Below, piece by piece: positions 15,420 through 30,589 of a DNA stretch of 64,000 bases. Source of the stretch: Candidatus Aenigmatarchaeota archaeon. GTDB taxonomy: Archaea > Aenigmatarchaeota > Aenigmatarchaeia > CG10238-14 > SCSR01. Both the position numbers and the translations under genes were made by a program. Position 1 is the stretch's first letter, and each line of letters opens with the position of its first letter. The notes below the pieces were generated by a model that saw nothing but the letters and a program-made list of their open reading frames with translations, was not told the DNA's origin and did not search any database. Where the stretch lies: NCBI GenBank assembly GCA_038998335.1, contig JAVZHQ010000001.1:192001-256000 (forward strand). Direction: 5' to 3'.

Positions 15420-15448
15420 ATGTTAGACGTCTAACAAGAAACTACTTT
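15420..15448. repeat. left 29-bp inverted repeat containing palindrome TGTTAGACGTCTAACA (15421-15436)
   Basis: ATGTTAGACGTCTAACAAGAAACTACTTT, the exact reverse complement of 17114-17142. Confidence 0.95.
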
Positions 15449-16998
15449 ACCACGAGCTTTATTATTTCTTTTACATCTCCATAAACAACTTTTTGTTTAC
15501 AAAATCTTGTTAAGTAATAAGCGGCTTTTGCAGAATTTGTAGCTGTTGTCTTATAACCTATATCTTCAATTGGAGCGACAATCATACAAGTATCACAGAA
15601 AACTTTACCTCCGGCATCTTCTATTGTAAGAGTATAACCAAGATTGTCGGCTTGCATCTTGACATCTCTAGAAGTGCAGACCCAAAGGTCGACTCCATCT
15701 CTAATCTTTTTACCAAAAAGATATTTTGATATTGTTTTTATTTCATCAAGAGAAGAATGTGGACAACCAAATGCAACTAAATCAACATCTTTTTCTTCAC
15801 CTGTATTTAATTTTTCTTTTGTAGATTTAAGATCTATTTCTTCAAAAAATAGTGTGTCCTCTATTCTGTCTAAAAAAATACTCTTTCTCACCGCTTCAGG
15901 AGTAATGCCCTCTACGTGAAAGAGAGCTAATGATCCTGAGGCTGCACCTGCCGCACCTAAAGCTTTTAATCTTTCTAAAAATGGAATCTCAGCTATTCCG
16001 TGATAGAGTGATCGAAAATTCAAGCTCGGAGAACTTTTTTTAATTCCACTTATGTAGGGGATTTTATCTTTAATCTTTTCACCAAGCCAATATCCAAAAG
16101 TAGCAAAATCATTTATGGTTTTTAGATTTGCTTCAACTTTTATTTTTATGTTCGGATTTCTGTTTTCATCTAGATGTAAACCATATACCGGAGCAAAACC
16201 TGCTATAGCATAGAATAGAGCGCTCAAACCTTCTCTATTAGTTCTTAAACCAAGAACTGAATTAGCATAAACCACAGCGGAACTCTCGGCCCAGTGTAGA
16301 TTAACATTACCAAAGCTTTTCAACCTTGATATCAAAGAGTATATTCTCGGCAAATGATAAGGTGTGCAAGTGCAAGTGATCATGGCTCCCATTTTTTCAT
16401 AGGCCTTGATTATTCTAATCTGTTTTTCTGCAAAATCTTTAGGAACTCTTTGTTCCCTCCATCTAGTAAGGTCCATTCCAGCTGGGTTGAGCATCGAGAG
16501 TTGATTAACTCTGAAATCTTCTGCAAGATCTTCTATAAGATTTAAGCCAGCGTCTGTTATGGTTTTGTAGGAAACGCCAGATATCTGCTTTGGTAGATTT
16601 TTAGTTTCGATAAATTCGTCGGTTTCATATAATTCTGCAATCTTGACCAACTTTTCTTTTATTTCTTCAGATAAATTCAACTTCTCTATCTTGTCTATAT
16701 CTACTTTTTGTGGTTTCCAACCAGAAATCTCAAACGGAATTTTTCCAAATATAGCACCCCATATCGTAATAGCATCATCTTTATTTTCAATTATAATCTT
16801 TTTAGGAGCAAAACCTCTTTTTGCTAAACTGTATATTTTATAACTACCAACTGTAGAACCTATGGAACCAGGAATATGCAACTCTTTTCCGGCAATGTTC
16901 TGGCCATTGAGCTCATGATCTTTTTGTATCACATTCCCGTTTAAATCTACACCATCAAGCCAAGAAATTGGTTGACTAGTTTTTAAAATTTCCATCAC
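15442..16998 (-). CDS. aconitase X, fused swivel (DUF126) + catalytic (DUF521) subunits; probable phosphomevalonate dehydratase
   Basis: N-terminal 'PISWLDGVD...GSTVGSY' is the small subunit. 'QISGVSYKTITDAG', 'TCTPY', 'WAESSA', 'GCPH', 'DTC', 'TNSAKAAYY' are large-subunit motifs. Confidence 0.88.
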   Translation of the reverse strand: MMEILKTSQPISWLDGVDLNGNVIQKDHELNGQNIAGKELHIPGSIGSTVGSYKIYSLAKRGFAPKKIIIENKDDAITIWGAIFGKIPFEISGWKPQKVDIDKIEKLNLSEEIKEKLVKIAELYETDEFIETKNLPKQISGVSYKTITDAGLNLIEDLAEDFRVNQLSMLNPAGMDLTRWREQRVPKDFAEKQIRIIKAYEKMGAMITCTCTPYHLPRIYSLISRLKSFGNVNLHWAESSAVVYANSVLGLRTNREGLSALFYAIAGFAPVYGLHLDENRNPNIKIKVEANLKTINDFATFGYWLGEKIKDKIPYISGIKKSSPSLNFRSLYHGIAEIPFLERLKALGAAGAASGSLALFHVEGITPEAVRKSIFLDRIEDTLFFEEIDLKSTKEKLNTGEEKDVDLVAFGCPHSSLDEIKTISKYLFGKKIRDGVDLWVCTSRDVKMQADNLGYTLTIEDAGGKVFCDTCMIVAPIEDIGYKTTATNSAKAAYYLTRFCKQKVVYGDVKEIIKLVVK

Positions 16999-17113
16999 TT
17001 AGCTCCCCTTCTTCTTAAAGCATATTTTACTTCATAACACTATCTCACTAGTGTTTCTGAATTACATTAAGCCAAAAAAGGGACCTTAATATTAATTAAA
17101 AATAAAGTATAAA

Positions 17114-17142
17114 AAAGTAGTTTCTTGTTAGACGTCTAACAT
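17114..17142. repeat. right 29-bp inverted repeat containing palindrome TGTTAGACGTCTAACA (17126-17141)
   Basis: AAAGTAGTTTCTTGTTAGACGTCTAACAT. Confidence 0.95.
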
Positions 17143-17176
17143 AATTCTTTTTTTTAATTCAAAAGAATTAAATTTT

Positions 17177-17926
17177 ATGATCGATGTTCATTGCCATCTT
17201 GAACAAGAAGATTTCTCACAAGATAGAGATAAAGTTATAGAAGAGTGTAAAAAAGAGTTGAAAGCAATAATTACTTGTTGTGCTCATCCAAAAGATTTTG
17301 ACTTAACTTTAAGTTTAATTGAAAAATACAAAGGTTTTGTTTTTGCTTGTGTAGGGATTCATCCTGAGTACATAAAAGAAATTTCTGAAGAAGAAAAAAA
17401 TAATTTTATTGAAAAGATTAAAGCAAATAAAGATAAAATTGTTGGTATCGGAGAAACAGGCCTAGATTTTTTCTGGATTAAAGAAGAAAATTTCCAAGAA
17501 AAACAAAAAGCTCTTTTTGTTGAGTTAATAAATCTTGCAAAAGAATTAAACTTGCCTTTAATAATTCATTCAAGAGAGGCTTATGAAGAAGCAGTAAAAA
17601 TTCTTGAGAAAGAAGATGCAAAAAAAGTTTTGCTCCATATGTTTGGTGAAAATCATTTGGCTAAAAGAATAGTTGAGAATGGATGGTTTGTTTCTATGAA
17701 TACTATTGTTCTTAAAAGCAAGAAGCATAAGAAAGTTGTTAGAGATGTACCTTTAGAAAGAATAATGCTAGAAACAGATTCACCTTGGCTTGGTTTTGGA
17801 AAAAGAAACACTCCTTTGAGCGTGAAAAACGTTGCAGAAAAAATAGCAGAAATAAAAAAAGTTAGTTTTGAAGAAGTAAAAAAAGTAACAACAGATAATG
17901 CGATAAATTTTTTTAATTTATTTTAA
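17177..17926 (+). CDS. tatD: TatD family nuclease
   Basis: 'IDVHCHL', 'GIHP', 'GETGLD', 'IHSR', 'ETDSPWL'. Confidence 0.93.
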   Translation: MIDVHCHLEQEDFSQDRDKVIEECKKELKAIITCCAHPKDFDLTLSLIEKYKGFVFACVGIHPEYIKEISEEEKNNFIEKIKANKDKIVGIGETGLDFFWIKEENFQEKQKALFVELINLAKELNLPLIIHSREAYEEAVKILEKEDAKKVLLHMFGENHLAKRIVENGWFVSMNTIVLKSKKHKKVVRDVPLERIMLETDSPWLGFGKRNTPLSVKNVAEKIAEIKKVSFEEVKKVTTDNAINFFNLF

Positions 17927-18537
17927 GCAATTGATAGAGTTTCTTCGCTAATTTCAAGAGTTAAAGGTTTAGACATAAAAGTAAACTTTTCTAAGTCCTT
18001 ATGGCTTCCACACCATTTCGTTACTGCTTCATAAACTTCAGAACTTCTTTTAGAAATTTGATTAACATAAAGTCTAAGCGAACCTAACTCTTTTTCAAAC
18101 TTCTCCTCAAATTTTTTACATGGCAAACCTTTTTCGTAAGCATGTTTTTTTAAATTGTTTTTCATAGACTCAAAGTTATGAACATAAAATGCAAATCTTC
18201 TACCGTGAAATAGTTCATAATTTATAACTCCTATATCTCTTAGGTCGTCCATTCCCTTAGGCCCTTTACCTGCCCCACATATATCATATAATTCCCTAGC
18301 TCCGTAAACGTTGAAAACTATAGGAAACATTTCTCTTGCAGAAAAAGTTAATCTAAATCCTTGCTTCAAAAGAAATTCTCTTATATAATAACCGCAACTA
18401 TAACCTATTATTGCTTCTTCTTTACTTTGAGCAAAGAAAGGATTCCCAACTTTAAACAAGTGATCGATTCTTATTCTTTCTCCAGGAAAGTTTCTTTTTA
18501 AATCGTTATTTATTTTTCTTTCAGTAAGAAACTCCAC
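17923..18537 (-). CDS. hypothetical protein
   Basis: 204-aa ORF with GTG start; no recognised motif. Confidence 0.65.
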   Translation of the reverse strand: MEFLTERKINNDLKRNFPGERIRIDHLFKVGNPFFAQSKEEAIIGYSCGYYIREFLLKQGFRLTFSAREMFPIVFNVYGARELYDICGAGKGPKGMDDLRDIGVINYELFHGRRFAFYVHNFESMKNNLKKHAYEKGLPCKKFEEKFEKELGSLRLYVNQISKRSSEVYEAVTKWCGSHKDLEKFTFMSKPLTLEISEETLSIA

Positions 18538-18591
18538 AATTAAGTTTAAAGTAAAGTAATCTTTATAAATTTTGACTTCAACTTTTAACCT

Positions 18592-19851
18592 ATGAAAGAG
18601 AAACCTACAGTAATAGCCCCTGTAAAAGGAAAAGGCACAAGACTTTATCCTCTTACTTTGGATGACTCTAAATCTTTAGTAGGAATAGCTAACCAGCCAA
18701 CTTTAGAAAGAATATTTGAAAACTTAGCTCTTTATGGTTGCAGAAATTATTGGATAATTGGGGAGTATGAGCTTTACTTTTACTTTAGGAGAGGTGAAAG
18801 CTTTTCAAAAAGACTTGACTTAAAACCTGAAGCTATTTTTAACTACTCTACTGAAGATGATTTTGGTAATGCTGACGGGACAAGAAGACTTTTAGAAAAA
18901 GAGGATATAGAAGGAAATGTGCTTATAATAGGAGGAGATAACTTAACTGACATAAACGTTGATCAAATGCTTAAGTTTCATGAGAATAACGATTCAGATT
19001 TTACTGTAGCACTGGCAGAAGTTAAAGATGTTACAAAGTATGGTATAGCTAAGCTAGACGGTAATAGAATTTGTGAGTTTTTAGAAAAACCTAAGCCCGA
19101 AGAAGCTCCTTCTAATCTAGGAAGTATGTTTTGTTATCTAGGCAAAGCAAAAGTTCTTAAAGAATTTCTAGAAAAGAATAAGGACCTTACAGATTTTGGT
19201 TCTCAAGTAATACCAAAAATGGTAAAGGAGTGTAGAGTTTATGGCTATGTTCACAAAGGTTATTGGAAGGATATAGGAAATCCAGAAACTTTACTCCAAG
19301 CTTCTATAGATGTTTTGAACGGTAAAGTTGGAAAAATTGGAGAAAGGATTCATCCTTCAAGCAAAAATAAAATAGGGAAAAATGTGGAAATGGATAATGT
19401 GCTTATAGGGGCAAATGTAAGAGTTGGTAATAACGTCAAGCTAAAAAATGTTTGTATAGAAGATAACTGTATAATAGAAGATGGAGCTGAGATAGAAGAT
19501 TCTGTGCTTTATTTTGCAGCAAGAGTTGGTGAGAAAACTAAAGTAAAGAAATCTATTGTTGGAAGGTTTGCTTACACAGGAAAAAGAAGCGAAATAGGAG
19601 GTTATAATATAGATAAAGTTTCTGTAGTAGGAAATAATGTAAAAATGGGTGATGAATGGATAATATGGGAAGGTGAGCTTTTAGCTACATATTCTCCGCA
19701 AAATATGAGGAAGATTAAAAAAGCAACTTTAAACAACCAAGACTTGTATAAAATTGTTAACGTGGATAATGACATTATATTCTTTGTTAACAGAAAAACT
19801 CTTTACGAAGATTATAAAGGAATGCCTCCTCCTGTTTTCAAAAGGGTTTAG
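18592..19851 (+). CDS. sugar-phosphate nucleotidyltransferase with hexapeptide (LbH) repeats
   Basis: 'GKGTRLYPLT...K', 'GGDNL', 'FLEKP', 'YWKDIG', C-terminal hexapeptide repeats. Confidence 0.9.
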   Translation: MKEKPTVIAPVKGKGTRLYPLTLDDSKSLVGIANQPTLERIFENLALYGCRNYWIIGEYELYFYFRRGESFSKRLDLKPEAIFNYSTEDDFGNADGTRRLLEKEDIEGNVLIIGGDNLTDINVDQMLKFHENNDSDFTVALAEVKDVTKYGIAKLDGNRICEFLEKPKPEEAPSNLGSMFCYLGKAKVLKEFLEKNKDLTDFGSQVIPKMVKECRVYGYVHKGYWKDIGNPETLLQASIDVLNGKVGKIGERIHPSSKNKIGKNVEMDNVLIGANVRVGNNVKLKNVCIEDNCIIEDGAEIEDSVLYFAARVGEKTKVKKSIVGRFAYTGKRSEIGGYNIDKVSVVGNNVKMGDEWIIWEGELLATYSPQNMRKIKKATLNNQDLYKIVNVDNDIIFFVNRKTLYEDYKGMPPPVFKRV

Positions 19852-21068
19852 CTTAGTTTATACCTTAAGAAAGCTCCTATTCCTCCCAATTCTTTAAACT
19901 GAGCACCTTCGCTGCTTTCTGTCGAGATAAACTCAACTTTACTTCCTAAGTTTTTTGCTTTTTCACTTAAACTTTCAACTAATTCCTCTACGCTTTCGAC
20001 ATTCATAACCTGATTACATTTCTCACAGTATTGATTTTCAGCTTTATCTTTCGGCAAATCTTTTTCCTGTGTCAAATTACACTTATTGCATTTAAGTTTA
20101 ACATGAACAAAATCAAAACCTTCTGAAATCAGTAAAGTATCAACAGCTCCTGCTTCCAAAGCTTTTATAGTTTCCTTAAAACCGTAAGTAACATTTCCTC
20201 CCTTTTGTAGTTCAGAGAAAAATTTATTCATTATTTCCTTTTCCTTCATTATAGAAGCCTTTTCAAGCAAGTCTTCTGACCTGTTAACAAGTTCTCTTAG
20301 TCCATATTCGCCTGTATAGCTTGTATCTTTTATTCCCAAAATTTTTTTCTGAATTTCATGGTGTAAGTAATTTCCTTGGGCAAAAGTTTCTTTTGTCGGT
20401 CCTGGACCACCAATCAAAACTCCTTTCAACTCAGGCTCTTGCAAAAAAAAGTTTGAGGCAATTTCTCCTACTCTAGTAAAAAACTCATTCAAGGCGTCTT
20501 CTCTAATCCTATCATACCTACGTTGTGACATCCCACCTTTTACGCTCTTGGAAGGTACAGTAGATTCCAATTTTTTGAATTCTTCAACTAATTTGCCTTT
20601 AAGTAAGCCAATGTTAGCTTCGTTCGCGTCAAGAACTATTAAACCATAAACTTCCTTTTCTCTCAACATTTCTTTCAAAGGGTTAAGAACAAAAACTTGA
20701 TCGCAACGATAAATTTTTGTTGAAAGTTTTTCTGGAGGCTCTAAACTCCAAATTCTTACATCTGAAATTCCAGGGTCAGAAGAAACATTTCCACAAAAAA
20801 CCACCAAACCATTTTCAGGAGTTGTTCTAAAAAGTCTTAAGTGTTGAATTATTTTTTCTAAAGCACTCATCACGTTTTTTCTTACAGTTTTATCCTTTAC
20901 GTTTTGCGCTAAGCTATACTCTTCTCTTAACATGTTGACAACTTCTTGCAAGTTTGAACCAGAAGGAATATAAACGCTAACCAATTCCGTATGTCTACCT
21001 TTTATTTTTTCCAATTCTTTTACCATCTTCTTTAGTTTTAACAGTTTCTCTTCTTCCATTTTACTCAC
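19848..21068 (-). CDS. prf1: peptide chain release factor aRF1 (GGQ replaced by GGM)
   Basis: 'GRHTELVSVYIP', 'PENGLVVFCG', 'YRCDQVF', zinc ribbon, 'LGGIGAFLRY'. Confidence 0.95.
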   Translation of the reverse strand: MSKMEEEKLLKLKKMVKELEKIKGRHTELVSVYIPSGSNLQEVVNMLREEYSLAQNVKDKTVRKNVMSALEKIIQHLRLFRTTPENGLVVFCGNVSSDPGISDVRIWSLEPPEKLSTKIYRCDQVFVLNPLKEMLREKEVYGLIVLDANEANIGLLKGKLVEEFKKLESTVPSKSVKGGMSQRRYDRIREDALNEFFTRVGEIASNFFLQEPELKGVLIGGPGPTKETFAQGNYLHHEIQKKILGIKDTSYTGEYGLRELVNRSEDLLEKASIMKEKEIMNKFFSELQKGGNVTYGFKETIKALEAGAVDTLLISEGFDFVHVKLKCNKCNLTQEKDLPKDKAENQYCEKCNQVMNVESVEELVESLSEKAKNLGSKVEFISTESSEGAQFKELGGIGAFLRYKLS

Positions 21069-21073
21069 GAAAG

Positions 21074-23395
21074 TTATAGTATGTTGTGCATAACTTTTAA
21101 ATCTTTCTCAAAAACTTTTAACTCTTCTGGAATCTCTATTTTTATCGCTTCTTTTAGTGAAACTCCTTTTTTCTTTTTTTCTTCCCAAACTCTTGAGTTA
21201 AACTCTACCAAGCTTTTAGTTAGTTTTGTCATATCTTTCTTCCATTCTGGTTTTGGAAAAGTCTCTAAGTGAATACTTTTTTTAGAATAGAGTTTTTTCC
21301 AAATGTATTCTGTAATAAAAGGAGAAATAGGTGCAAGAAGAAGTAGAATTGATTTTAAACAAGTGTGTAAAGTAAACCATGCAGCTTTCTTTTCCTCTTC
21401 AGAAAATCCTTTTCCATAAGCTCTTGACTTAACCATTTCAATGTAATGCGAGGCGAATAAATTCCAAATAAATTCTCTTATTTTATTCGAAGGTACGAAA
21501 AAGTTAAAATCTTCGTACCCTTTAAGACATTCTTCTATTAGGCTACTAAGCTCTGCTAAAATCCACTCATCTGTTTTAGTTAGTTTTGCTTTTTTTGGTT
21601 CTGGAAAAGAAGAAACAAATCTTGCGACGTTCCAAAGTTTTGTTAAGAATTTGGAGTTAGCAAATATTCTTTGCTCAGAGCATCTGAAATCATAACCTAA
21701 GCTTGCTTCTTGGGCTCCCCAAAACCTAAAAGCATCACTTCCATACTTTTCAAGAATAGGCAAGGGGTCTATAACATTACCTTTACTTTTGCTCATTTTT
21801 TCTCCTTTCTCGTCAACACCATAACCAGAAATCCAAACATGCTCAAAAGGTATTTTTTTAGTTATTTGGTAACATCTTAGCAAAGTATAATAAAGCCAAG
21901 TCCTTACTATATCTTTTCCTTGTGGTCTTATCGCATTTGGATAAGTCTTATTGAAAAATTCTTTATCTTCCAAAAATTTTGAGATGAATAATGGGGAAAT
22001 GCTAGAATCAAACCATGTATCAAAAGTTCTTTCTTCACCGATAAACTCTTTTGCCTTACAAAAAGAGCATTTTGAAAAAGGTGGTTTTTCCTTCCAAGGT
22101 TTATAGTATTTTCCAGGTTTTGGAACATTAGCTTTACCACATTTTTTACAGTACCAAATTGGAATTTCAGTTCCGTAAAACCTTCTTCTTGAAATAGGCC
22201 AGTCTGTTGTTATTGAGTTAATCCAATTAAGCAATATCATCTTATGTTCTTCAGGATGGAATTTAATTTTTTCTATTTCTTTTTTCAAATCTTCTATGAA
22301 AGGAATTTGTTTTAAGTAATATTCTTTCATAGGAATTATTTCTATGGGAGTTTTGCTTCTTTCGCATAAAGGAGTTCGATGCCATATATCTTCTATTTTC
22401 TTTACTATACCCATTTTTTGTAGATCTTCTATTATTCTTTTTCTTGCATCTTCAATTTTTAGACCAGCATAATTTCCTGCGTTTTTTGTCATTTTTCCAT
22501 TTTCATCTATAGCTATTATTTCCTTGAGCTTAAACTGTCTGAAAATTCTCACATCACTTTGATCACCATAACTACAAACCATAGCAGCTCCTGTTCCAAA
22601 CTCAGGTTTTGCTTCTTTACAAGGAATTATAGGTACTTCCCTTTCATAGATTGGAATTATCGCATGCATGTTATGTAAGCTTTTATACCTTTCGTCTTCT
22701 GGATGAACTATTACTGCTTGGCAAGAACAAAGGAATTCTGGTCTTGTTGTGGCAATGGTTAAATCTTTGCCAGTTTCCTTTACTTTAAAATTTATGTAAA
22801 CAAGTTTTGTAGGAAGCTCTTCATACTCTATTTCAGCATCTGCTATGGTTGTTTTGCAATCTATACAATAATTGTTAGGTCTAGTAGCTTCGTAGATTAA
22901 ACCTTTGTTCCAAAGCCAAATAAAAGTTGTTTGAGTAAGTTTTCTGTATTCCTCACTATCTGTACGATAATAATCGTCAAAATCTCCGCTTATTCCTACC
23001 ATTTTCATTATTTTTATGAAAATCTTTTCAACATCATCCAAAGAATGTTTGCATAGTTCTATAAATTTCTCTCTTTTCACTTCATGCAATCTTATATTGA
23101 ATTTTTTTTCTGTGTAAAGTTCAACAGGAATTCCGTTTCTGTCTATTCCTATAGGGAAATAAACTTCAAAACCAAGCATTCTTGCAGTTCTTGATATCAT
23201 ATCTATTTGTGAATAATGGACTACTGCACCAATATGCCAAGGTAAACCAGAAGGATATGGTGGAGGGGTATCTATCGTAAAAATTTTTTTCTTTGTCTTA
23301 GGATTAAAACTAAAAATTTTATCCTTTGACCACTCGCTTAAGATTTTTTCCTCAAATTTTATGTCCCATCTTTTTTCTTTTAATTTCGGTTTCAC
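21074..23395 (-). CDS. valS: valyl-tRNA synthetase
   Basis: 'DTPPPYPSG', HIGH-like 'HIGA', 'ATTRPE', 'DWPISRRR', 'DTWFDSS', KMSKS. Confidence 0.93.
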   Translation of the reverse strand: MKPKLKEKRWDIKFEEKILSEWSKDKIFSFNPKTKKKIFTIDTPPPYPSGLPWHIGAVVHYSQIDMISRTARMLGFEVYFPIGIDRNGIPVELYTEKKFNIRLHEVKREKFIELCKHSLDDVEKIFIKIMKMVGISGDFDDYYRTDSEEYRKLTQTTFIWLWNKGLIYEATRPNNYCIDCKTTIADAEIEYEELPTKLVYINFKVKETGKDLTIATTRPEFLCSCQAVIVHPEDERYKSLHNMHAIIPIYEREVPIIPCKEAKPEFGTGAAMVCSYGDQSDVRIFRQFKLKEIIAIDENGKMTKNAGNYAGLKIEDARKRIIEDLQKMGIVKKIEDIWHRTPLCERSKTPIEIIPMKEYYLKQIPFIEDLKKEIEKIKFHPEEHKMILLNWINSITTDWPISRRRFYGTEIPIWYCKKCGKANVPKPGKYYKPWKEKPPFSKCSFCKAKEFIGEERTFDTWFDSSISPLFISKFLEDKEFFNKTYPNAIRPQGKDIVRTWLYYTLLRCYQITKKIPFEHVWISGYGVDEKGEKMSKSKGNVIDPLPILEKYGSDAFRFWGAQEASLGYDFRCSEQRIFANSKFLTKLWNVARFVSSFPEPKKAKLTKTDEWILAELSSLIEECLKGYEDFNFFVPSNKIREFIWNLFASHYIEMVKSRAYGKGFSEEEKKAAWFTLHTCLKSILLLLAPISPFITEYIWKKLYSKKSIHLETFPKPEWKKDMTKLTKSLVEFNSRVWEEKKKKGVSLKEAIKIEIPEELKVFEKDLKVMHNIL

Positions 23396-23439
23396 CTACT
23401 CACCTGCAATAAAATAAAATTTCTCTTGTTTAATTAAAT

Positions 23440-24837: not shown

Positions 24838-24869
24838 TCTTTTTTATTTTAGGCTTTCTATTTTTAAAT

Positions 24870-25343
24870 ATGAGAAGAAGCTTAGTTTTACAAGTACTTC
24901 TTATAATTTTCATAACTTTTGTGATTAGAGAAACAATTTATTATTTCTATCTTGGGGGAAAGTTTGATGTTTACTTTATTTTAAACTCTTTGTTCTTTCT
25001 TCTAGGGGTTTACGCAGGCTATATTTCTCTAATGCTTTTCAACCAACTCAAAAAAGAGCAGGATATTTCTATGCTGAGCATTTTTCTTTCTTTTAGAGAA
25101 TTCAAGAATGAAATTAAGTTTTTATATATTTTTTCTCTTATAGCTGGAACAAGTTTTTTTGTTTATTCTATTTTTTATGGGGCTAAAATTTTTATTGAAG
25201 CACTTAAGCCTTTTGAATGGCTTGTTGATACGTTCTTTTTAATTTCTTTTACTTGTTTTCTCGCTTTTATTGTTTCCTTTATCTTTCTTGTTAGAAAATG
25301 GGAGAAGAGGTTTGAAAAGTATGGGGGTTTGGGAAGTTATTAA
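24870..25343 (+). CDS. multi-pass membrane protein
   Basis: About 4 hydrophobic helices; overlaps the next gene. Confidence 0.7.
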   Translation: MRRSLVLQVLLIIFITFVIRETIYYFYLGGKFDVYFILNSLFFLLGVYAGYISLMLFNQLKKEQDISMLSIFLSFREFKNEIKFLYIFSLIAGTSFFVYSIFYGAKIFIEALKPFEWLVDTFFLISFTCFLAFIVSFIFLVRKWEKRFEKYGGLGSY

Positions 25344-25665
25344 CTTCGTAGTTTATTTTCTTGTTGCGATTCTTTTCTCTATAGTTACTGCTTTTGCTAG
25401 AAAATTCTTGAAAAACTTAGAAGAAAACGAAAAGCTTGCAGCTTCCTTAATTTTTCTCAACCCAAAAGTACCAAAATGTTTTTGGATTTTAGGTATAATT
25501 CTTTTTGTTTTTTCCATAGCTTTTTTACTTTCGCCTTTTTATGAGTTCTACTTTCGTTCAAGTCTTTTTGTAATAATTATTTCAACTTATCTTTTACTTT
25601 TTGCTTTTGTTTACTTTTTCAAAACCCTTTATGAGGCAACAAAAAGTGAGGAGTATGGAGCTTAG
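25321..25665 (+). CDS. 3-TM membrane protein
   Basis: Hydrophobic helices; resembles the upstream protein. Confidence 0.7.
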   Translation: MGVWEVINFVVYFLVAILFSIVTAFARKFLKNLEENEKLAASLIFLNPKVPKCFWILGIILFVFSIAFLLSPFYEFYFRSSLFVIIISTYLLLFAFVYFFKTLYEATKSEEYGA

Positions 25666-26026
25666 AGCTGAACTAGAAAAGATATTGAAAGAGATGAAGA
25701 AAATAGAAGGGGTAAGAGGAAGCTTGATAGCTAACAGAGAAGGATTGCTTGTAGTTTCTTATCTCCCTGCTGAGCTTGACGCTAGACTTTTAGCTGCTTT
25801 GGCCGCAACTTTAGTGAAAGTTTCAAGCATGACAGCTGAAAGATTGGGAATGGGTACTTTTACTCATACTGTGGTTAAAGCCTCTCAAGGTTATTATGTT
25901 TGCTTCCCGATTGATACTGAAATGATTTTAGCATGCCTACTGGAAAAGGATGTTAATCTTGGTTTAGTTTTGGTTAGAATGGAAGAGAGTATAAAAGAAA
26001 TAGTAAAAGTTTTAAGAAGTGTTTAA
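25655..26026 (+). CDS. Roadblock/LC7 domain protein
   Basis: 'GVRGSLIANREGLLVVS...LAALAATL...NLGLV'; GAGGAG SD. Confidence 0.9.
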   Translation: MELRAELEKILKEMKKIEGVRGSLIANREGLLVVSYLPAELDARLLAALAATLVKVSSMTAERLGMGTFTHTVVKASQGYYVCFPIDTEMILACLLEKDVNLGLVLVRMEESIKEIVKVLRSV

Positions 26027-26027
26027 G

Positions 26028-26099
26028 TGGACTGGCCGGGATTTGAACCCGGAACTTCCGCCTTGCGAAGGCGGCGATCTACCGTTGATCTACCAGCCC
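26028..26099 (-). tRNA. tRNA-Ala(CGC)
   Basis: Anticodon arm CCGCC-TT-CGC-AA-GGCGG; G3:U70 identity pair. Confidence 0.96.
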
Positions 26100-26141
26100 T
26101 TGATAAAATCAATTTTATTTTTGATTTAAATAATTTAATTT

Positions 26142-26912
26142 ATGGAAAGGATTCTTTTTGATGCAATAAGTTTTGCGAAAAGAGCAGGACTTTTGCTCTT
26201 GAAAGATTTTAGAAAAGTTAAAGAATACTCAAAAAGAGGGCATAGCAAAGCAATAAAAACTATTTATGATAAAGCTTCTGAAAATTTGATAAAAAAGCTT
26301 ATTTCAGCAAAGTATCCTGAGCATAGCATTTTGTCAGAAGAAGCAGGTTATGTTGAAAAGGATTCTAAGTATTTGTGGGTTGTTGATCCTCTAGATGGAA
26401 CAGGAAATTTTGTTAACGGTAATCCTTTGTTTTCTGTTTCCATAGCTTTTTTAGAAAATAACAAGCTTAAGTATGGAGCAATATACTTTCCAGTTTCTAA
26501 CGAAACCTTTTTCGCAGAAAGAGGAAAAGGAGCTTTTCTAAACGGAAAAAGAATTTTTGTTTCAAAAATAGATAAGCTAGAAAAAAGCTATTTTGTAACT
26601 TGTGAAGGCGTAGAAAAAAGTAAGAAAAGAAAGGCAAAGCTTTACTCTACAATAATATCAAAAGCAGTTGATATAAGGAAGCTTGGTTCAGGAAGCTTAG
26701 AGTGTGCTTGGGTTGCTTCAGGAAGGGCAGAGGCTTACTTAACTTTTAAAGTTCCACCTTGGGATGTTGCTGCCGGAGTTTTGTTAGTAGAAGAGGCAGG
26801 AGGAAAGGTTACTGATTTTAAAGGAAGGGAATGGAGTTTAAGACAATGCGACTTTTTGGCTTCAAATTCTCTTATTCATGAAAAAGTTTTAAAATTGTTA
26901 AAAGGCATCTAA
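26142..26912 (+). CDS. suhB: inositol monophosphatase/FBPase family
   Basis: 'SEE', 'DPLDGTGNF', 'WDVAAG'. Confidence 0.9.
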   Translation: MERILFDAISFAKRAGLLLLKDFRKVKEYSKRGHSKAIKTIYDKASENLIKKLISAKYPEHSILSEEAGYVEKDSKYLWVVDPLDGTGNFVNGNPLFSVSIAFLENNKLKYGAIYFPVSNETFFAERGKGAFLNGKRIFVSKIDKLEKSYFVTCEGVEKSKKRKAKLYSTIISKAVDIRKLGSGSLECAWVASGRAEAYLTFKVPPWDVAAGVLLVEEAGGKVTDFKGREWSLRQCDFLASNSLIHEKVLKLLKGI

Positions 26913-27338
26913 CATTTTTTTAAATTCTTTTATTTGCTCTTTTGCTACAGGTTGAAGCTTAACTTTTATTTTATTCACATTAAACCATTTAATATCACAA
27001 ACATCACTTCCTGCTTTTAATTTGCCCCCAACAATCTTTGTTTTAAAACAAAAAACCAAGTGATGATGATTATCATGAAACTCTTGAGTTAAGTGAAAAA
27101 GTTCTAAAGGTTTTATTTTAAGACTAGTTTCTTCTTTAGTTTCTCTTATTAAAGCTTCTTCCAAGGTTTCTCCTGCTTTTACCTTTCCTGTAGGAAGACC
27201 CCAGAATCCTGGAAAAGCTTTTTTTGATCTCTTTCTCTTGACTAATAAAATTTTTCTATCTTTTTCGATCAAAGCACTAACAACTGCTGAAATCTTTCTT
27301 GGAGTTTTAATGTTTCTTTTAACTGTACAAATTTTCAT
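26898..27338 (-). CDS. NUDIX hydrolase
   Basis: 'GKVKAGETLEEALIRETKEETSL' Nudix box. Confidence 0.92.
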   Translation of the reverse strand: MKICTVKRNIKTPRKISAVVSALIEKDRKILLVKRKRSKKAFPGFWGLPTGKVKAGETLEEALIRETKEETSLKIKPLELFHLTQEFHDNHHHLVFCFKTKIVGGKLKAGSDVCDIKWFNVNKIKVKLQPVAKEQIKEFKKMLDAF

Positions 27339-27356
27339 AAGATTTTATTGTTTTTG

Positions 27357-28475
27357 TTAAAACTTATTATTTGGTACAAGACTTTTCAGTCTTTTTAAAG
27401 CCTCTACTTTTTCTTTTTTCTCTATTTCAGCTTGCTTTAGAATTTCATCTAAAAATCTTATTGATTCGTCCATAGCTTTTCTTTCTATTGGCTTAGGAAC
27501 ACCATCCTTGCCACCGTAAGCATAAGAATATTTTACTGGGTCTTTCCAGCTTGGCTCTGAGCCATAAATTATTTCAGAAACTAAAGCTAAACCTCTTACA
27601 GTAGAAGGGCCTATACCTTTTATCCCTAAGAGCTCTTCGTAATTTTTTGGTTGAAACTCATAAGCTTCTTTCAAAGCGTCCCAGTTAACATTTCTCGGCA
27701 TTTTTAAAACATGAACAAAAAACTCTTTTCTTTTAAAAGGTAGAAATTGAGTTAAACTTTTTTGATAAATTGGCTTTATTGATAAGAAGTCATTTCTAAT
27801 TTTTTGTGGTCCTTCTTTTACTAAATCGACTGAAATTTTTCTTGCTTCTTCGCTTTGCTTAGCTGTCATATCTAAAACATTTTCTTTTTTTATATCGCAG
27901 CAAATTGCAGAATGAGGCTCTTCAACGAAACTTTTAACGTTTTCAGAAATCCAATGGTACCTGCGAGCAGTTTTATCTTGAATATTCATTCCCTGTTGAA
28001 CAACAACCCAAGATTTTTCTGTAAAGAAAAATGTGTGATGGTATAAAGGATACTCGCATTGGATAGCAGTATTATCTACTTTTGCGCTCATTCTGCTTGC
28101 ATACTTTAATTCTTCCATCTTTTTTGAAGATAAAGAAAGAGTTTCGCTGATTTTTTCAATTTCTTTTGGAGTTTTTCTTGAAAACTTCCCTTTTCCGCCT
28201 GCAATTCCTAAGCCAAATTTTTCTGGTCGAATAACAGATTTAAGAATAGCACATACTGTTGTGGTAACTCCTGAAGAATGCCAATCATGTCCTATAACAC
28301 AACCAAAAGCTTGGAACCAAAAGGGATTTGAAACTCTTCTTAGTAATTCTTCTTTTCCATATTCTTCTATAACTAAAGTAGCAATTTGTTTTCCTAACTT
28401 TTTCATTCTTACTAAAAGCCAGAAAGGTACATGCCCGTAATGTAAAGGAAGTTCTGCAATCCCAGTTTTTTTCAT
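27357..28475 (-). CDS. DUF763 family protein
   Basis: 'LPLHYGHVP.WL', 'WHSSGVTT', 'GGKDGVP'. Confidence 0.88.
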   Translation of the reverse strand: MKKTGIAELPLHYGHVPFWLLVRMKKLGKQIATLVIEEYGKEELLRRVSNPFWFQAFGCVIGHDWHSSGVTTTVCAILKSVIRPEKFGLGIAGGKGKFSRKTPKEIEKISETLSLSSKKMEELKYASRMSAKVDNTAIQCEYPLYHHTFFFTEKSWVVVQQGMNIQDKTARRYHWISENVKSFVEEPHSAICCDIKKENVLDMTAKQSEEARKISVDLVKEGPQKIRNDFLSIKPIYQKSLTQFLPFKRKEFFVHVLKMPRNVNWDALKEAYEFQPKNYEELLGIKGIGPSTVRGLALVSEIIYGSEPSWKDPVKYSYAYGGKDGVPKPIERKAMDESIRFLDEILKQAEIEKKEKVEALKRLKSLVPNNKF

Positions 28476-28598
28476 GAGTCTCACTTGGCTTATCAAAATT
28501 TATTTTAAAATAAAGTTAATTAGATTTTTGGGAGTAAATTTCCGCTGATTCCGATTCATTAAAAATAAAAGTTATTAGGTTAATTAAATTTTATAGCT

Positions 28599-28673
28599 GG
28601 ACAGGTGGCGCAGCCTGGTTAGCGCAATCGGCTGATAACCGATAGGTCGAGGGTTCAAATCCCTCCCTGTCCA
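28599..28673 (+). tRNA. tRNA-Ile(GAT)
   Basis: Anticodon arm ATCGG-CT-GAT-AA-CCGAT. Confidence 0.96.
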
Positions 28674-28967
28674 TTTTGCTATGTTATTCCAGTAAATTAA
28701 AATAAAAGGAAACATTTTTTAAAATTATTTTTTTGTATTTTTACAACTTTTTAGGTAGAAATTAATAGATATAGAGAGATTTCTACGCTACTTCAAAATA
28801 ACATCCAGCACACAAACAAGCGACTGTTCCTCTACAGGAACAACCTACCGAAACTCCTCTTGTAGTCCAAGCTTTAATCCAAACACCCGCTCTCCGTGAC
28901 TAGCATCTTATAGAGTGTGTTATTAATAGGTAAGTTTTTAAATCTTTTTTGTTTTCTATCTTAAATT

Positions 28968-29207
28968 ATGATTAATTATAGAGAAAAAATCATCGAAATT
29001 TTAAAAAAATCAAATGGTTTAACTTTTTCAAGTATAGAGGTTGAATTACTCAGAAGCTTGAGTGAAAGTGAGAAAAGAGAGTACAGATTTGATAAGTTTT
29101 TTGTTGCTATTTATGATTTAGAAAATGATGGTATAATATTTAGGGGAAAAGGAGGAGAATTTGAGAAAGGAAAGTTTTACTTAAAGCTTAAAAATAGCAA
29201 TTCCTAA
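28968..29207 (+). CDS. small winged-helix-like protein
   Basis: 'IIEILKKSNGLTFSSI...LENDGII...Y' pattern. Confidence 0.55.
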   Translation: MINYREKIIEILKKSNGLTFSSIEVELLRSLSESEKREYRFDKFFVAIYDLENDGIIFRGKGGEFEKGKFYLKLKNSNS

Positions 29208-29217
29208 CTTTTTTTTG

Positions 29218-29835
29218 ATGAAAGGATTATTTATAGTGTTCGAAGGAATTACCGGCTCTGGTAAAAAAACCCACATAAAACTTTTAGTAGAAAAACTGAA
29301 AGAAAAGGGGAAAGAAGTTACTGTAATTTCTTTTCCTAATTATGAAAGTGAAATAGCAAGATTTACAAAAAGAGCTGATTTAGACGCTTACACTCAATCT
29401 TTACTTTTTGCTGCTGATAGAAGTCTTTACCAGGAAAGGATTAAAGCTTTACTTGAAAAAGGAAACGTAATTCTTTGCGATAGATATTGTTACAGTAACT
29501 TTGCCTATCAAGCTGCTAAAGGCTTACCTTTAGGATGGCTTAAAGAAATAGAAAAACATACCATTAAGCCTGATATTGTTTTTTTGATTGATGTGCCAGT
29601 TGAAATTAGCATGAACAGAGTTAAACAGTTAAGCATTGAAGATTTCACTAAAAAGGAAATACTTGAAAGGTTGGAAAGGGAAAAAGACTTTCTGGAAAAA
29701 ATAAGGGAAATTTACTTGAGTTTAGCTGTAACTGATAAAGAAACTAAATGGTTTGTTATTAATGGTTCAGAAGATATTTCTGTTAATCATGAAAAAATTT
29801 GGAAAAAGGTAAAAGAAGAACTTAAAATTGAGTAG
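29218..29835 (+). CDS. tmk: thymidylate kinase
   Basis: 'FIVFEG..GSGK', 'LLFAADR', 'CDRY..SNFAYQ', 'PDIVFLID'. Confidence 0.88.
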   Translation: MKGLFIVFEGITGSGKKTHIKLLVEKLKEKGKEVTVISFPNYESEIARFTKRADLDAYTQSLLFAADRSLYQERIKALLEKGNVILCDRYCYSNFAYQAAKGLPLGWLKEIEKHTIKPDIVFLIDVPVEISMNRVKQLSIEDFTKKEILERLEREKDFLEKIREIYLSLAVTDKETKWFVINGSEDISVNHEKIWKKVKEELKIE

Positions 29836-29848
29836 AGTTTTTTTCAAC

Positions 29849-29868
29849 TTTGTTAGACGTCTAACAAA
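29849..29868. repeat. palindrome copy 3 (core TGTTAGACGTCTAACA 29851-29866; 20-bp perfect palindrome)
   Basis: TTTGTTAGACGTCTAACAAA. Confidence 0.95.
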
Positions 29869-29904
29869 AAATAAAATTTAAAAATAGAAAATTAATTTAC
29901 AATT

Positions 29905-30513
29905 ATGAAGCTTTTGACCTCGCCGGTCGAGGCTTTAAAGGAAGCAAAAACAAAAAAAAGTTTTGGTAAAACCATAGGAATATTAGTAATTTCAGCAATA
30001 CTTTTTGGTTTATCTGTAGCAATATTTCCTCTAGGATTTTCAACAACTCCTGTTAGGGCAGTACCAACCTTTTCTACAATGACCTTTGCTGTAATTTTTG
30101 TAGGTACGTTAATACTTGGTTTATTCTACGGCTATCTAGCAAAGTTAGTAATGAACATTCTTGGAGGTAAAGGGAAGTACTTCGAAGGTCTAACGACAAT
30201 AACCTACTCCATATTCCCCTTTTCTGTAGGTTTATTTATAGTAGCACTACTAAATTACGCGTTACTTCAAGTGCAGCAAATAGCCCAATATTATTTGGTA
30301 ACAATCTTTATCCAAGGGTTTATTCTATCGGTATTTACAGCACTCGGGTTAGCAGTATTTTACAAAGGACTTAACGAACTTTTCCAAGTGGATATGATAG
30401 CTGCATTGGTTGGTGCAGGAATACTTTTCTCAACACTTTGGATTGCATTTTATGGACTAATCTTTAGTTTGATGGGAGCTTTTATCCCGCTAGTTCCATC
30501 GATTAGACCATAA
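29905..30513 (+). CDS. YIP1-family 5-TM membrane protein
   Basis: 'LLTSPVEAL', 'LGGKGKY...ITYS..P', five hydrophobic helices. Confidence 0.75.
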   Translation: MKLLTSPVEALKEAKTKKSFGKTIGILVISAILFGLSVAIFPLGFSTTPVRAVPTFSTMTFAVIFVGTLILGLFYGYLAKLVMNILGGKGKYFEGLTTITYSIFPFSVGLFIVALLNYALLQVQQIAQYYLVTIFIQGFILSVFTALGLAVFYKGLNELFQVDMIAALVGAGILFSTLWIAFYGLIFSLMGAFIPLVPSIRP

Positions 30514-30571
30514 AATCGTAAGCTAATTTTTCCTTTTTCTTTTTTTCAAAAATTTTTAAAGAGTTTTTTTA

Positions 30572-30589
30572 ATGTTAGACGTCTAACAT
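30572..30589. repeat. palindrome copy 4 (core 30573-30588; 18-bp perfect palindrome)
   Basis: ATGTTAGACGTCTAACAT, flanked by a T-run and an A-run. Confidence 0.95.

Follow-up and report, generated by a model that had tools for sequence, protein, structure and literature searches.

A perfect 16-bp palindrome, TGTTAGACGTCTAACA (hereafter P), recurs along the source genome (G000), that of an archaeon with a small genome, at the borders of genes that are present in some relatives and absent from others, and palindromes of this kind are linked to individual paralogues of a solo 69-aa Cas2-fold protein (mini-Cas2). We tentatively favour an explanation in which P is the target of mini-Cas2 at transcription-unit borders and the joint where gene cassettes enter or leave, by an enzymology that is presumed. 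The window analysed is a stretch of 64,000 nucleotides (C1:192001-256000). An exact search recovered four copies of P (Table 1) and confirmed the sequence-only reading, which had described four identical intergenic copies and no other full copy, one pair bracketing acnX and the other a Yip1-like gene. Its overall interpretation, cassette ends or, alternatively, sites of a dimeric protein, is partly supported. None of 100 dinucleotide-preserving shuffles of the window contained an exact match. With up to three mismatches allowed, only the four exact copies were matched in the window, and the shuffles gave a mean of 0.29 and at most 2 matches.

Table 1. Features of the two P-bounded units and the mini-Cas2 gene (window positions unless a contig is given).
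Feature	Position	Strand	Remark
192-aa membrane-like ORF	14832-15410	+	conserved neighbour; stop codon and T6 run directly before P
P copy 1	15421-15436	.	left border of acnX unit; exact match
11-nt inner flank AGAAACTACTT	15437-15447	+	inverted repeat of 17115-17125
acnX, fused aconitase-X (swivel + catalytic domain)	15442-16998	-	Pfam AcnX 3.9e-119; cargo 1
11-nt inner flank AAGTAGTTTCT	17115-17125	+	partner of 15437-15447
P copy 2	17126-17141	.	right border of acnX unit; exact match
tatD	17177-17926	+	conserved neighbour of acnX unit
Thymidylate kinase (Tmk)	29215-29835	+	conserved neighbour of Yip1 unit
P copy 3	29851-29866	.	left border of Yip1 unit; exact match
Yip1-domain membrane protein gene	29905-30513	+	Pfam Yip1 1e-09; cargo 2
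P copy 4	30573-30588	.	right border of Yip1 unit; exact match
tRNA-Glu(UUC)	30639-30715	+	conserved neighbour
mini-Cas2, solo 69-aa Cas2-fold protein	G000:C1:317857-318063	-	outside window

In the whole genome, P occurs 17 times exactly, four times with one mismatch and not at all with two, and the near-matches at three (4) and four (37) mismatches are at about chance level (expected by hand estimate for 0, 1, 2, 3 and 4 mismatches: about 0, 0, 0.3, 4 and 35-50). All 21 copies are intergenic and scattered over 660 kb, and they cluster with gene-sized spacing, at intervals of 1373, 1680, 1355, 207 and 3746 nt, of 1705 nt, of 722 nt, of 1007, 270 and 35 nt and of 1791 nt. Conservation is confined to the 16 bp, the flanks of the 21 copies being unconserved. 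Most copies are preceded by a T5-7 run and followed by an A-run or TATA-like stretch. In 10 cases a start codon or tRNA 5' end follows at 35-50 nt, and 15 copies are at most 127 nt from a start; ten lie within 15 nt after a stop codon, and six (142340, 142547, 207421, 326091, 409289 and 430014) adjoin stop codons only. The flanked genes are functionally unrelated, differ between genera and include the housekeeping genes for SerRS and TFB. All five genomes of the same genus carry P, as does a second genus. An assembly artefact is excluded as the source of the copies, because genomes that were assembled separately also contain the 16-mer.

The acnX unit begins in a convergent gap, in which copy 1 lies 10 nt past the stop of the 192-aa ORF and 5 nt from the acnX stop, as had been described from the sequence. 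Copy 2 is 127 nt from the acnX start and 35 nt before the tatD ATG (17177). Because the 11-nt inner flanks are inverted and abut P, each end of the unit is a 27-bp inverted repeat. Such flanks were found at this unit alone, and the 27-mer had no exact match in the metagenome_contigs collection. Within this genus acnX is accessory; its protein was matched in none of five relatives searched, its DNA found no match in any of the five same-genus genomes, and a search of 5.8 billion proteins gave a best non-self homologue at 55% identity, the named homologues being from Micrarchaeia and Thermoplasmata. In G001 the locus is empty and reads geneA-P-tatD with a single P kept; the alignment runs at 97% up to and through copy 1 and then straight into tatD, where identity drops to 86%. 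The tatD locus of G002 carries a diverged P (10 of 16 letters), and those of G005 and G004 carry no P at all.

The Yip1-like gene is likewise accessory: G000 and G004 have it, and the locus lacks it in G001 and G005. The thymidylate kinase stop is 15 nt before copy 3, which ends 38 nt before the Yip1-like ATG, an arrangement also seen in G004, and 50 nt separate copy 4 from tRNA-Glu (30639), so that the distances of 35-50 nt noted earlier for three of the four copies proved correct. The empty locus of G005 reads Tmk-P-tRNA-Glu, with a single P 49 nt upstream of the tRNA gene, and the counterpart of copy 4 is also kept in G001. The suggestion that paired copies are cassette borders is thus borne out at both loci: the cargo is present or absent among same-genus genomes, and exactly one palindrome remains at the empty acnX (G001) and Yip1 (G005) sites.

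The cassette test that the sequence-only reading had advised came out positive, and more P-bounded units behave alike. At the two-gene unit 796443-798234, G003 has the genes and both copies of P, and G001 lacks the genes and has a single P. A 6-8.6 kb island begins exactly at P 146293, a 632-bp insert lies beside P in G001, and DNA identity between G000 and G001 shifts at P from 97 to 86, 91 to 99, 94 to 89 and 90 to 97%. In the genus g2, P pairs bracket other cargo, namely a UDG gene and a HEPN-MNT pair. In a hand tally that covers only loci picked for containing P, about 10 of 22 G000/G001 indel junction ends fall within 20 nt of P, and about 12 lie away from it, for example at the replacement of a 1012-aa gene. 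The AAA_14 unit (1680 bp) may have arisen as tandemly duplicated paralogues and not through an event specific to P.

Judged by sequence pattern, P belongs to a family of perfect 16-bp palindromes, TGT-NNN-ACGT-NNN-ACA, that occurs in this order of Aenigmatarchaeota-like archaea, and it represents one specificity within that family. For each specificity there is a mini-Cas2 paralogue whose promoter contains it. In G000 this promoter is sandwiched between two copies of P in the order P, TATA-like stretch, P*, 4 nt, ATG, which is the same in G012; the orthologues in G012, G023 and G020 have P-like sites 4-10 nt before the ATG. An own perfect upstream palindrome was found for 10 of 10 paralogues inspected (all six of G010 and four out of the 16 of G009), with further cases in G003, G006, G027 and G035. 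All 17 genomes with at least three pattern palindromes encode mini-Cas2, and the 16 without mini-Cas2 have 0-2 matches each (reversed-pattern controls: up to 2); five of the 25 mini-Cas2 genomes have no match, and the genomes in these counts are related and hence not independent samples. G030, from a different family, harbors about 25 copies of TGTTATACGTATAACA, an independent expansion of another specificity.

The fold of mini-Cas2 was predicted with high confidence (AF2 pLDDT 95.7), and in a Foldseek search of the PDB nearly all of the top ~30 listed matches were Cas2, with VapD also among the fold matches. A homodimer was predicted with a score of 0.58 (best control 0.00), with at least 97% contact agreement between runs and a partner pLDDT of at least 92. 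Of 30 solved pairs 20 attain the mark for this score, as does 1 of 23 single chains; since Cas2 dimers are already solved, the pass may reflect likeness to known structures. The hypervariable part of the protein is helix alpha-1, with invariant R22 and D8, which lies outside the predicted interface. The metal-binding (catalytic) Asp of Cas2 is retained, and no known DNA-binding motif was detected in mini-Cas2. Cas2 proteins are not known to bind DNA sequence-specifically. Cas1 was not found in G000, and among 41 relatives it occurs in 6 as against 25 with mini-Cas2. The earlier alternative that P is the site of a dimeric DNA-binding protein has gained the strongest new support, through the promoter sites and the co-occurrence.

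P is probably a double-stranded protein-binding site rather than a hairpin, and its likeliest cognate binder would be mini-Cas2, probably as a homodimer. Copies of P occupy the narrow gap between the T-run ending one unit and the BRE/TATA-like stretch opening the next. Genes would be gained and lost by breakage and joining inside P, so that a gain would leave P-cargo-P and a loss a single P. We tentatively favour an active process, with mini-Cas2 recognising and perhaps cutting P and thereby seeding joints. Joining may be enzyme-driven, or it could make passive use of the microhomology that the identical 16-mers offer. A chromosome with many active recombination sites would be expected to endanger the cell. 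Of the earlier idea that a trans-acting enzyme mobilises single genes, the cassette states stand, and no such enzyme was identified.

The placement 35-50 nt upstream of starts makes almost half of the copies look like ordinary operators or upstream activating sites. It is conceivable, if rather unlikely, that the role of mini-Cas2, or of another dimeric factor, is confined to transcription regulation, with the P copies as its operators just upstream of BRE/TATA. Cassette-like differences would then be by-products of whole units being gained and lost with their operator, the 16-mers occasionally serving as microhomology for illegitimate or homology-facilitated recombination. This would suit the 15 copies near starts, the divergent gap at 796443, where P lies midway at 45 and 37 nt from two starts, the autoregulatory layout conserved in G012, the fact that most specificities in G010 have a single site, at their own gene, and the copies in G030, which are placed like P, 30-65 nt upstream of starts. 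However, regulons normally have graded, degenerate sites, whereas here a gap separates one mismatch from chance level. Nor would regulation alone account for functionally unrelated cargo that changes with the genus, for tatD without P in G005 and G004, for an acnX without close relative that nevertheless has two perfect copies and inverted flanks, or for the independent expansion of different specificities to 20-30 copies. Mostly single copies genome-wide, at a fixed distance from TATA boxes, had been named in advance as evidence against cassettes; the 10 copies at 35-50 nt agree with this in part, but six have no nearby start, and empty sites exist.

That P is the core site of a trans-acting tyrosine recombinase (XerA or integrase), with mini-Cas2 an unrelated neighbour, appears improbable. 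The window had been said to encode no recombinase, and in a search for two families the four Phage_integrase genes and the single Y1_Tnp gene of G000 all lay outside it. One of them, XerA (NF040815, 280.6 bits against a cut-off of 220), lies about 400 nt from P 796443, and three further integrases are present, but XerA falls under the integron-integrase cut-off (235.5 against 265), and an orthologue was found in only one of five P-bearing relatives searched (G012, 74%). G006, with 21 copies of P and 93% completeness, has only a 33% integrase. The P half-site GTTAGAC agrees with the integron core consensus GTTRRRY. An attC site is a long imperfect hairpin, and P, when tested, was no canonical attC or dif site. 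Integrons and attC clusters are reported from archaea including Aenigmatarchaeota (PMC9668308), and site-bounded units without internal recombinase resemble dif modules (PMC6449649, PMC13141974); Xer sites, however, are described as 11-6-11 bp (PMC2958812), whereas P is conserved over 16 bp only. Nor would a tyrosine recombinase explain why palindromes and mini-Cas2 paralogues are paired.

It is very improbable that P is merely transcription punctuation (a roadblock terminator or insulator) or a parS-like chromosome-organisation site: the T-runs before and A-runs or TATA-like stretches after P would fit, and 12 of its 16 letters match the bacterial parS consensus, but P did not qualify as a parS site, ParB_N was not found in G000 by a search whose control matched 11 of 14 known genomes, P also occurs in divergent promoter gaps and varies in presence between close relatives, and cassette states and paralogue-specific palindromes would stay unexplained. 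Least probable of all is the earlier idea of a REP-like hairpin of an HUH (RAYT/IS200-type) enzyme or a protelomerase-type site, for although P is a perfect palindrome, often just after stop codons, in a genome with one Y1_Tnp gene, it tested negative as an HUH/REP site, its ssDNA hairpin is weak in three of four window copies (-2.8 to -4.7 kcal/mol, z about -1.2), the flanks of the 21 copies hold no conserved tetranucleotide, and the sole Y1 gene sits in an IS200/IS605-like element on contig C9, which lacks P, alongside a TnpB fragment and a hairpin of the element's own that differs from P.

P as a mini-Cas2 target and cassette joint has partial parallels. In Acinetobacter dif modules, pdif-flanked genes are moved by XerC/XerD in trans (PMC6449649, PMC13141974); as far as these accounts go, both systems place single genes or small sets, including toxin-antitoxin pairs, in either orientation between short inverted-repeat sites, with the recombinase outside the unit and units present or absent between relatives. 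Unlike the 28-bp XerC-spacer-XerD pdif sites on plasmids, P is a chromosomal 16-bp perfect palindrome in a variable-triplet family tied to a Cas2-fold protein, and XerA co-occurs poorly with it. Integron cassettes are likewise mostly single-gene units separated by recombination sites (PMC9668308), and P forms arrays of 3-6 sites at gene spacing, but without IntI, attI or a long imperfect attC hairpin; P cargo has its own promoters and both orientations, and sites span hundreds of kilobases and flank housekeeping genes. Cas1-Cas2 adaptation and casposons share the Cas2-fold protein and a short palindromic unit duplicated around inserted DNA, with the acnX unit having terminal inverted repeats just inside the duplicated P; they differ in that G000 has no detected Cas1, whole genes of 0.7-3.7 kb between 16-bp sites take the place of spacers, and short-spacer arrays are lacking. 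Small dimeric regulators such as antitoxins or RHH-type repressors are autoregulated through palindromic operators. Like them, mini-Cas2 has a palindrome overlapping its own promoter, operators diverged among paralogues and a predicted homodimer, but it has the ferredoxin-like fold of Cas2 and retains the catalytic Asp, and its sites, identical in an all-or-none manner, fall at gene-content junctions. A stand-alone Cas2/VapD sub-family, also outside CRISPR loci, is known in Burkholderia (PMC10491678); mini-Cas2 is shorter, and in the literature searched none of these nucleases was described with a cognate palindrome or cassette borders. In summary, the palindrome family and its paired mini-Cas2 proteins point to an undescribed DNA-recognition and gene-shuffling system in these archaea.

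The 16-bp perfect palindrome TGTTAGACGTCTAACA (P) occurs exactly four times in the window, no match was found in 100 shuffles, and allowing up to three mismatches added no further copy there. The sequence-only reading had described these copies as two pairs, each around one gene, and the same positions were recovered, with acnX alone in pair 1 and a Yip1-domain gene alone in pair 2. Its description of the surroundings was also accurate: copy 1 lies between two convergent stop codons, and copies 2-4 end ahead of tatD (by 35 nt), the Yip1-like gene (38 nt) and tRNA-Glu (50 nt). Besides AcnX, the source genome encodes TFB. ARAGORN also called a tRNA with an undetermined four-base anticodon in the window (Rfam tRNA score 52 bits), which may contain an intron. 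The source genome (G000; archaeal, 1.01 Mb, 33% G+C, nine contigs) was scanned by script and holds 17 exact copies and four with one mismatch (P*), all on contig C1. At two, three and four mismatches there are 0, 4 and 37 copies, and about 0.3, 4 and 35-50 are expected by chance in a 1-Mb AT-rich genome (hand estimate). The family is therefore all-or-none, since nothing exists at two mismatches and the counts at three and four are near the chance estimate. Across the genome, the 21 copies are strongly clustered at gene-sized spacings. One array holds six copies (at most one mismatch) and a three-mismatch relic, another holds four copies. The genes flanked by P are functionally unrelated and include two AAA_14/DUF4143 ATPases, SerRS, a class-I (Trp/Tyr-type) tRNA synthetase, TFB, a Cas2-like gene, AcnX, TatD, Yip1, tRNAs and an Lrp/AsnC regulator.

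All 21 copies are intergenic in greedy ORF calls, and one of them overlaps a stop codon, the ORF terminating at a TAG inside P. Counted by hand, the flanking ORFs define 10 tandem, seven convergent and four divergent gaps; 10 of the 21 copies lie at most 15 nt from a stop codon, 10 of 21 have a start codon or a tRNA 5' end at a distance of 35-50 nt, and six adjoin only gene ends. Most copies have a T5-7 run before them and an A-run or TATA-like stretch after them. On the basis of these distances and flanking runs, P lies downstream of one transcription unit's end and ahead of the following unit's promoter. P contains the stop codons TAG and TAA in two of three frames on each strand, and this internal TAG is the stop of one AAA_14 ORF.

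Coordinates of P copies, P-associated units and neighboring features (genome G000 unless another is named; L numbers denote the sequence stretches studied)
Feature	Location	Strand	Stretch
P copy 1	window 15421-15436		
P copies 2, 3 and 4	window 17126, 29851, 30573		
P with internal stops, second example			L001 5985-6000
acnX	window 15442-16998	minus	
Yip1-domain gene	window 29905-30513		
tRNA called by ARAGORN	window 49490-49577		
Six-copy P array	C1 137.9-146.3 kb		
1680-bp unit	C1 P 139305 to P 140985		
Metabolic-gene island	C1 146.3-152 kb, from P 146293		
P* adjoining tRNA	C1 161481		
tRNA adjoining P	C1 ~161.5 kb		L002 2538-2626
Four-copy P array	C1 316.8-318.1 kb		
mini-Cas2 gene	C1:317857-318063	minus	L003 4854-5063
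1012-aa ORF	C1:319122-322160	minus	L003 6122-9160
Orphan palindrome	C1:344566-344581		L170 766-781
tRNA adjoining P	C1 ~785.2 kb		L006 3187-3310
Two-gene unit	C1 P 796443 to P* 798234		
Contig with IS200/IS605-type TnpA	C9 (5963 bp)		L007
Integrase-like ORF	G001:C10		L021 ~690-1000
SerRS-like piece	G002:C58:3019-3134		
Palindrome or mini-Cas2 copies near contig ends	G006:C34:14-147; G012:C4:30908-30968; G011:C1:106; G030:C60:12; G030:C61:2		

At up to one mismatch, P was found in 11 of 41 related genomes, G000 included. It is present in all five other genomes of the genus (G001-G005; 17, 1, 11, 4 and 15 copies), has 21 copies in one genome of a second genus (G006) and one to three, mostly variants, in four further genera; the remaining 30 genomes had none at this threshold, and the reversed-pattern control gave 0 everywhere. 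When one genome per prokaryote species was scanned, multi-copy contigs were confined to Aenigmatarchaeota or "uncultured archaeon" MAGs and bacterial matches were single copies, with about 140 matches expected by chance in the 596 Gb (hand estimate). Viral contigs gave five single matches, about chance level. P is a conserved, strictly identical, intergenic 16-mer, and a literature search, with supplementary tables outside it, returned no report of it.

Among close relatives, some gene units are present in one genome and absent in another, and P copies fall at the borders of these units. The acnX DNA has no match in 5/5 same-genus genomes, where its flanks are present, and a protein search found acnX in 0/5 relatives. 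In G001 a 192-aa gene, a T-run, one P and tatD follow in direct succession, which is the empty site (one P, no cargo) that had been sought in relatives; a second one was found at the Yip1 locus of G005, where Tmk, one P and tRNA-Glu have no Yip1 gene between them. At the acnX locus G005 and G004 have neither P nor acnX, and G002 has a diverged version (10/16) at the orthologous place between well-conserved flanks. A search of 5.8 billion proteins gave no AcnX homologue above 55% identity; the named homologues are from Micrarchaeia and Thermoplasmata. Both P copies flanking acnX are perfect, and on the inner side each runs on into an identical 11-nt stretch, inverted between the two ends. Such a pattern would result from a crossover within P against a molecule whose palindrome was longer, or from a terminal-inverted-repeat element inserting with duplication of P. 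As metagenome contigs gave 0 matches to the 27-mer junction of the unit and 0 confirmed loci for acnX relatives, the cassette could not be traced to other contexts. At the Yip1 locus, G004 has the order Tmk-P-Yip1 on a contig that ends about 10 nt before the second P copy, and in G001 a decayed 15-mer is separated by 55 nt from a perfect P, the interval holding no gene. After tRNA-Glu, G001 carries an ORF that by eye resembles the N-terminal part of an integrase and is absent from this place in G000, which suggests an element integrated at the tRNA.

Further units behave similarly. The 1680-bp unit is missing in G001; it holds a paralogue of its neighbor and may therefore be a tandem duplication. 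The two-gene unit is also missing in G001, which has one P there, and G003 has both copies and the unit. An island of 6-8.6 kb begins exactly at a P and holds spermidine synthase, AdoMetDC, radical-SAM proteins, a methyltransferase and a PIN protein, and no recombinase was found in the 10 ORFs scanned. G006 has P pairs around a uracil-DNA-glycosylase gene and around a HEPN-MNT pair. G001 has an extra 632-bp ORF directly beside P, its homology to G000 is lost within 20 nt of the P* that adjoins a tRNA, and DNA identity between the two genomes shifts across P from 97 to 86, 91 to 99, 94 to 89 and 90 to 97%. Among 22 G000/G001 junction ends tallied by hand at the examined loci, about 10 fall within 20 nt of P and about 12 do not, one case of the latter being the replacement of a 1012-aa gene; since the tallied loci were chosen for holding P, this is a lead and not a statistic. 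The 1012-aa ORF lies three genes upstream of the mini-Cas2 gene (see below), and has no Pfam match; G001 has 1.2 kb of different DNA in its place, and G003 and G005 have the ORF at 75-81% identity. Synteny with relatives is lost at the 3' ends of the two P-adjoining tRNAs at ~785.2 and ~161.5 kb; one has an apparent intron, and the former has P on both sides in G001. Beside the island-bordering P, G002 carries a 115-nt piece resembling the promoter and start of SerRS, which adjoin a different P in G000. This piece may have been left by an exchange between sequences flanking two P copies.

Outside the window, P copies stand on both sides of a gene encoding a solo Cas2-fold protein of 69 aa (mini-Cas2). 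Its promoter reads P, a 19-nt TATA-like stretch, P*, 4 nt and ATG, and another P follows the gene. The structure model has a pLDDT of 95.7, and nearly all of the top ~30 listed Foldseek matches in the PDB are Cas2 proteins (TM 0.6-0.7); scores against sequence models were just under the cut-offs (e.g., TIGR01573, 21.1 vs 24.5). A conserved Asp at the end of strand 1 is a hallmark of Cas2. D8 of mini-Cas2 is invariant in the alignments (21/21 and 14/14 sequences), as are P10, R22, S35, W37 and G57. A homodimer is predicted with a score of 0.58 vs 0.00 for the best control, the runs agreeing in at least 97% of contacts at a partner pLDDT of at least 92, and the mark is attained by 20/30 solved pairs and 1/23 single chains; because Cas2 dimers are already solved, this may only reflect likeness to known structures. 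The searches found mini-Cas2 in 25 of the 41 relatives, in as many as 16 copies per genome, and Cas1 in six of 41. The family consists of solo Cas2-like genes, and most carrier genomes are without Cas1. Most relatives are fragmented MAGs (69-95% complete) with many P and mini-Cas2 copies at contig ends, often only a few hundred bases away. The assemblies seem to break at these copies, which fits population heterogeneity or repeats there.

P is one member of a family of palindromes that is linked to solo mini-Cas2 paralogues. In three other genera the orthologues carry P-like sites, 4-10 nt ahead of the ATG. G012 repeats the layout of the G000 mini-Cas2 promoter with two copies of TGTTATACGTCTAACA, the orthologues of G023 and G020 keep the half-site ACGTCTAACA, and G008 shows only weak resemblance to P. 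All ten paralogues inspected (6/6 in G010, 4/16 in G009) have their own perfect palindrome upstream, behind a common ATAGAAA / TTTAT block. Seven of these palindromes have the form TGT-NNN-ACGT-NNN-ACA, with the triplets AAA, TAT, CCA, CTC, AGA and CAT, and three deviate in the center (ATAT) or the outer triplet; TGTTATACGTATAACA and TGTCTCACGTGAGACA are paired with other mini-Cas2 paralogues. The pattern TGTNNNACGTNNNACA has 40 matches in G009, nine in G010, eight in G011, five in G020, 20 in G000, 17 in G001, 14 in G003, 15 in G005 and 24 in G006, with 0-1 for reversed-pattern controls. Nearly all matches are perfect palindromes in families of 2-6 identical copies, and a few are hybrids of two half-sites. 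The matches in G000 are the P family and one orphan, TGTCATACGTATGACA, with no paralogue adjoining; a T-run precedes the orphan and a 53-aa membrane-like ORF starts about 85 nt downstream. Over the 41 genomes, which are related and hence non-independent samples, mini-Cas2 is present in 17/17 with at least three pattern matches, the 16 genomes without a mini-Cas2 match have 0-2 (controls at most 2), and 5/25 carriers have no pattern match; the co-occurrence extends over five families. In G030, from another family, about 25 copies of TGTTATACGTATAACA were found, intergenic and 30-65 nt from starts at the three loci viewed. This is an independent expansion of another specificity. Neither these palindromes nor solo Cas2 proteins with cognate sites turned up in the same literature search.

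Among the paralogues, helix alpha-1 (residues 12-27) is the variable part, and it takes no part in the predicted dimer interface. In one pair of paralogues whose alpha-1 helices are similar, the palindromes are similar as well (TGTCCGAT.. and TGTCCAAC..); in another such pair they are not. Sequence-specific binding by mini-Cas2 is proposed, with indirect support from the hypervariable, exposed alpha-1 and from the occurrence of the protein together with the sites. The protein would bind the palindromes as a dimer via alpha-1, and breakage and joining would take place inside P. We tentatively favor an active, mini-Cas2-linked process at P, as plausible and a little short of probable. Potentially, P is instead the operator of a plain regulon, with identical sites used passively as joints. 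As in an autoregulated transcription factor, the cognate site overlaps mini-Cas2's own promoter and is kept in orthologues and paralogues; even on this modest reading, a new regulator family with perfect operators would have been found, and the all-or-none site spectrum and the enrichment at junctions would need explaining. We regard the regulon as rather unlikely.

A tyrosine recombinase acting in trans on P is improbable. Four tyrosine recombinases and one Y1 HUH gene are encoded in G000, and no RAYT flanked by P. One of the four recombinases is XerA, about 400 nt from the P at 796443 (NF040815, 280.6 bits, cut-off 220). It was rejected as an integron integrase, since TIGR02249 reached 235.5 bits in two stretches (cut-off 265). 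An orthologue was found in only 1/5 P-bearing relatives searched, though these genomes are only 79-93% complete, and in G006 the XerA search gave only a 33%-identical integrase; with this poor co-occurrence, XerA is an unlikely P enzyme. The hairpin/HUH and punctuation/centromere readings share the remaining probability. The single-stranded fold of P is weak in 3/4 window copies (-2.8 to -4.7 kcal/mol, z about -1.2; -7.9 in copy 4, which has complementary T- and A-runs).

Every known system compared with P fails on a defining feature: IntI/attC, the 11-6-11 Xer site, RAYT, Cas1 or ParB. Integron attC sites are imperfect inverted repeats of 55-140 nt (R''-L''...L'-R') that fold single-stranded with extrahelical bases. 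P differs: its conserved part is a perfect palindrome of just 16 bp, the flanks are unrelated and the fold is weak, and G000 has no IntI, an integron integrase marked by the IntI-specific insertion, the best candidate being XerA. The integron core site is GTTRRRY and the inverse core RYYYAAC; the P half-sites GTTAGAC / GTCTAAC fit them, but this match is post hoc, and its chance is about 1 in 1000. Chromosomal dif is single-copy, whereas P has 21 copies and a conserved unit of 16 bp. The archaeal dif Xer site has two 11-bp arms and a 6-bp spacer (PMC2958812). The chromosome-boundary TrmBL2-dif system concerns a single dif site and is not relevant to P (PMC11840125). With CRISPR-Cas adaptation, mini-Cas2 shares the Cas2 fold and the conserved Asp; however, Cas1 (PF01867) was not found in G000 (90% complete; control search 7/14), and the Cas1 or casposon idea was rejected for this reason. 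In REP/RAYT systems, repeats flank a RAYT-type Y1 HUH gene and the hairpin is stable. The sole Y1 gene of G000 lies on C9, by a TnpB fragment and its own, different hairpin, and no P is found on C9. Thus, IS200/IS605 TnpA was rejected as the P enzyme, and REP/RAYT is not supported, nor is the single-stranded hairpin idea of the sequence-only reading. C9 carries this TnpA, the TnpB N-terminal fragment, a family-A DNA polymerase-like ORF and other ORFs, and is probably a virus or plasmid fragment. parS/ParB was rejected, since ParB_N had 0 matches in G000 (control search, 11/14 genomes). The known systems closest to P in behavior are the dif modules of Acinetobacter and the cassettes of integrons; on a formal level, so is the duplication of repeats by Cas1-Cas2 or casposases.

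To our knowledge, the accepted role of Cas2 today is only structural, inside the Cas1-Cas2 integrase. It is tempting to speculate, doubtful as this is, that solo mini-Cas2 proteins are sequence-specific, paralogue-programmable DNA recognition/cleavage modules, each reading its own 16-bp palindrome via alpha-1, and that the sites are portable docking points for whole-gene insertion with palindrome duplication. If true, this would be the first Cas2-fold family with cognate, paralogue-specific DNA sites and thus a new role for the fold, and the variable triplet paired with the variable helix would be a natural recognition code. It would provide a gene-sized, Cas1-independent counterpart of "repeat-spacer-repeat" insertion. 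The system would then bear on how palindromic repeats and Cas2 met before CRISPR, and might be a relic of the ancestry that CRISPR repeats and Cas2 have, or run parallel to it. For very small DPANN genomes, it would be a route to exchange single genes, from toxin-antitoxin pairs to metabolic genes, with no recombinase inside the units.
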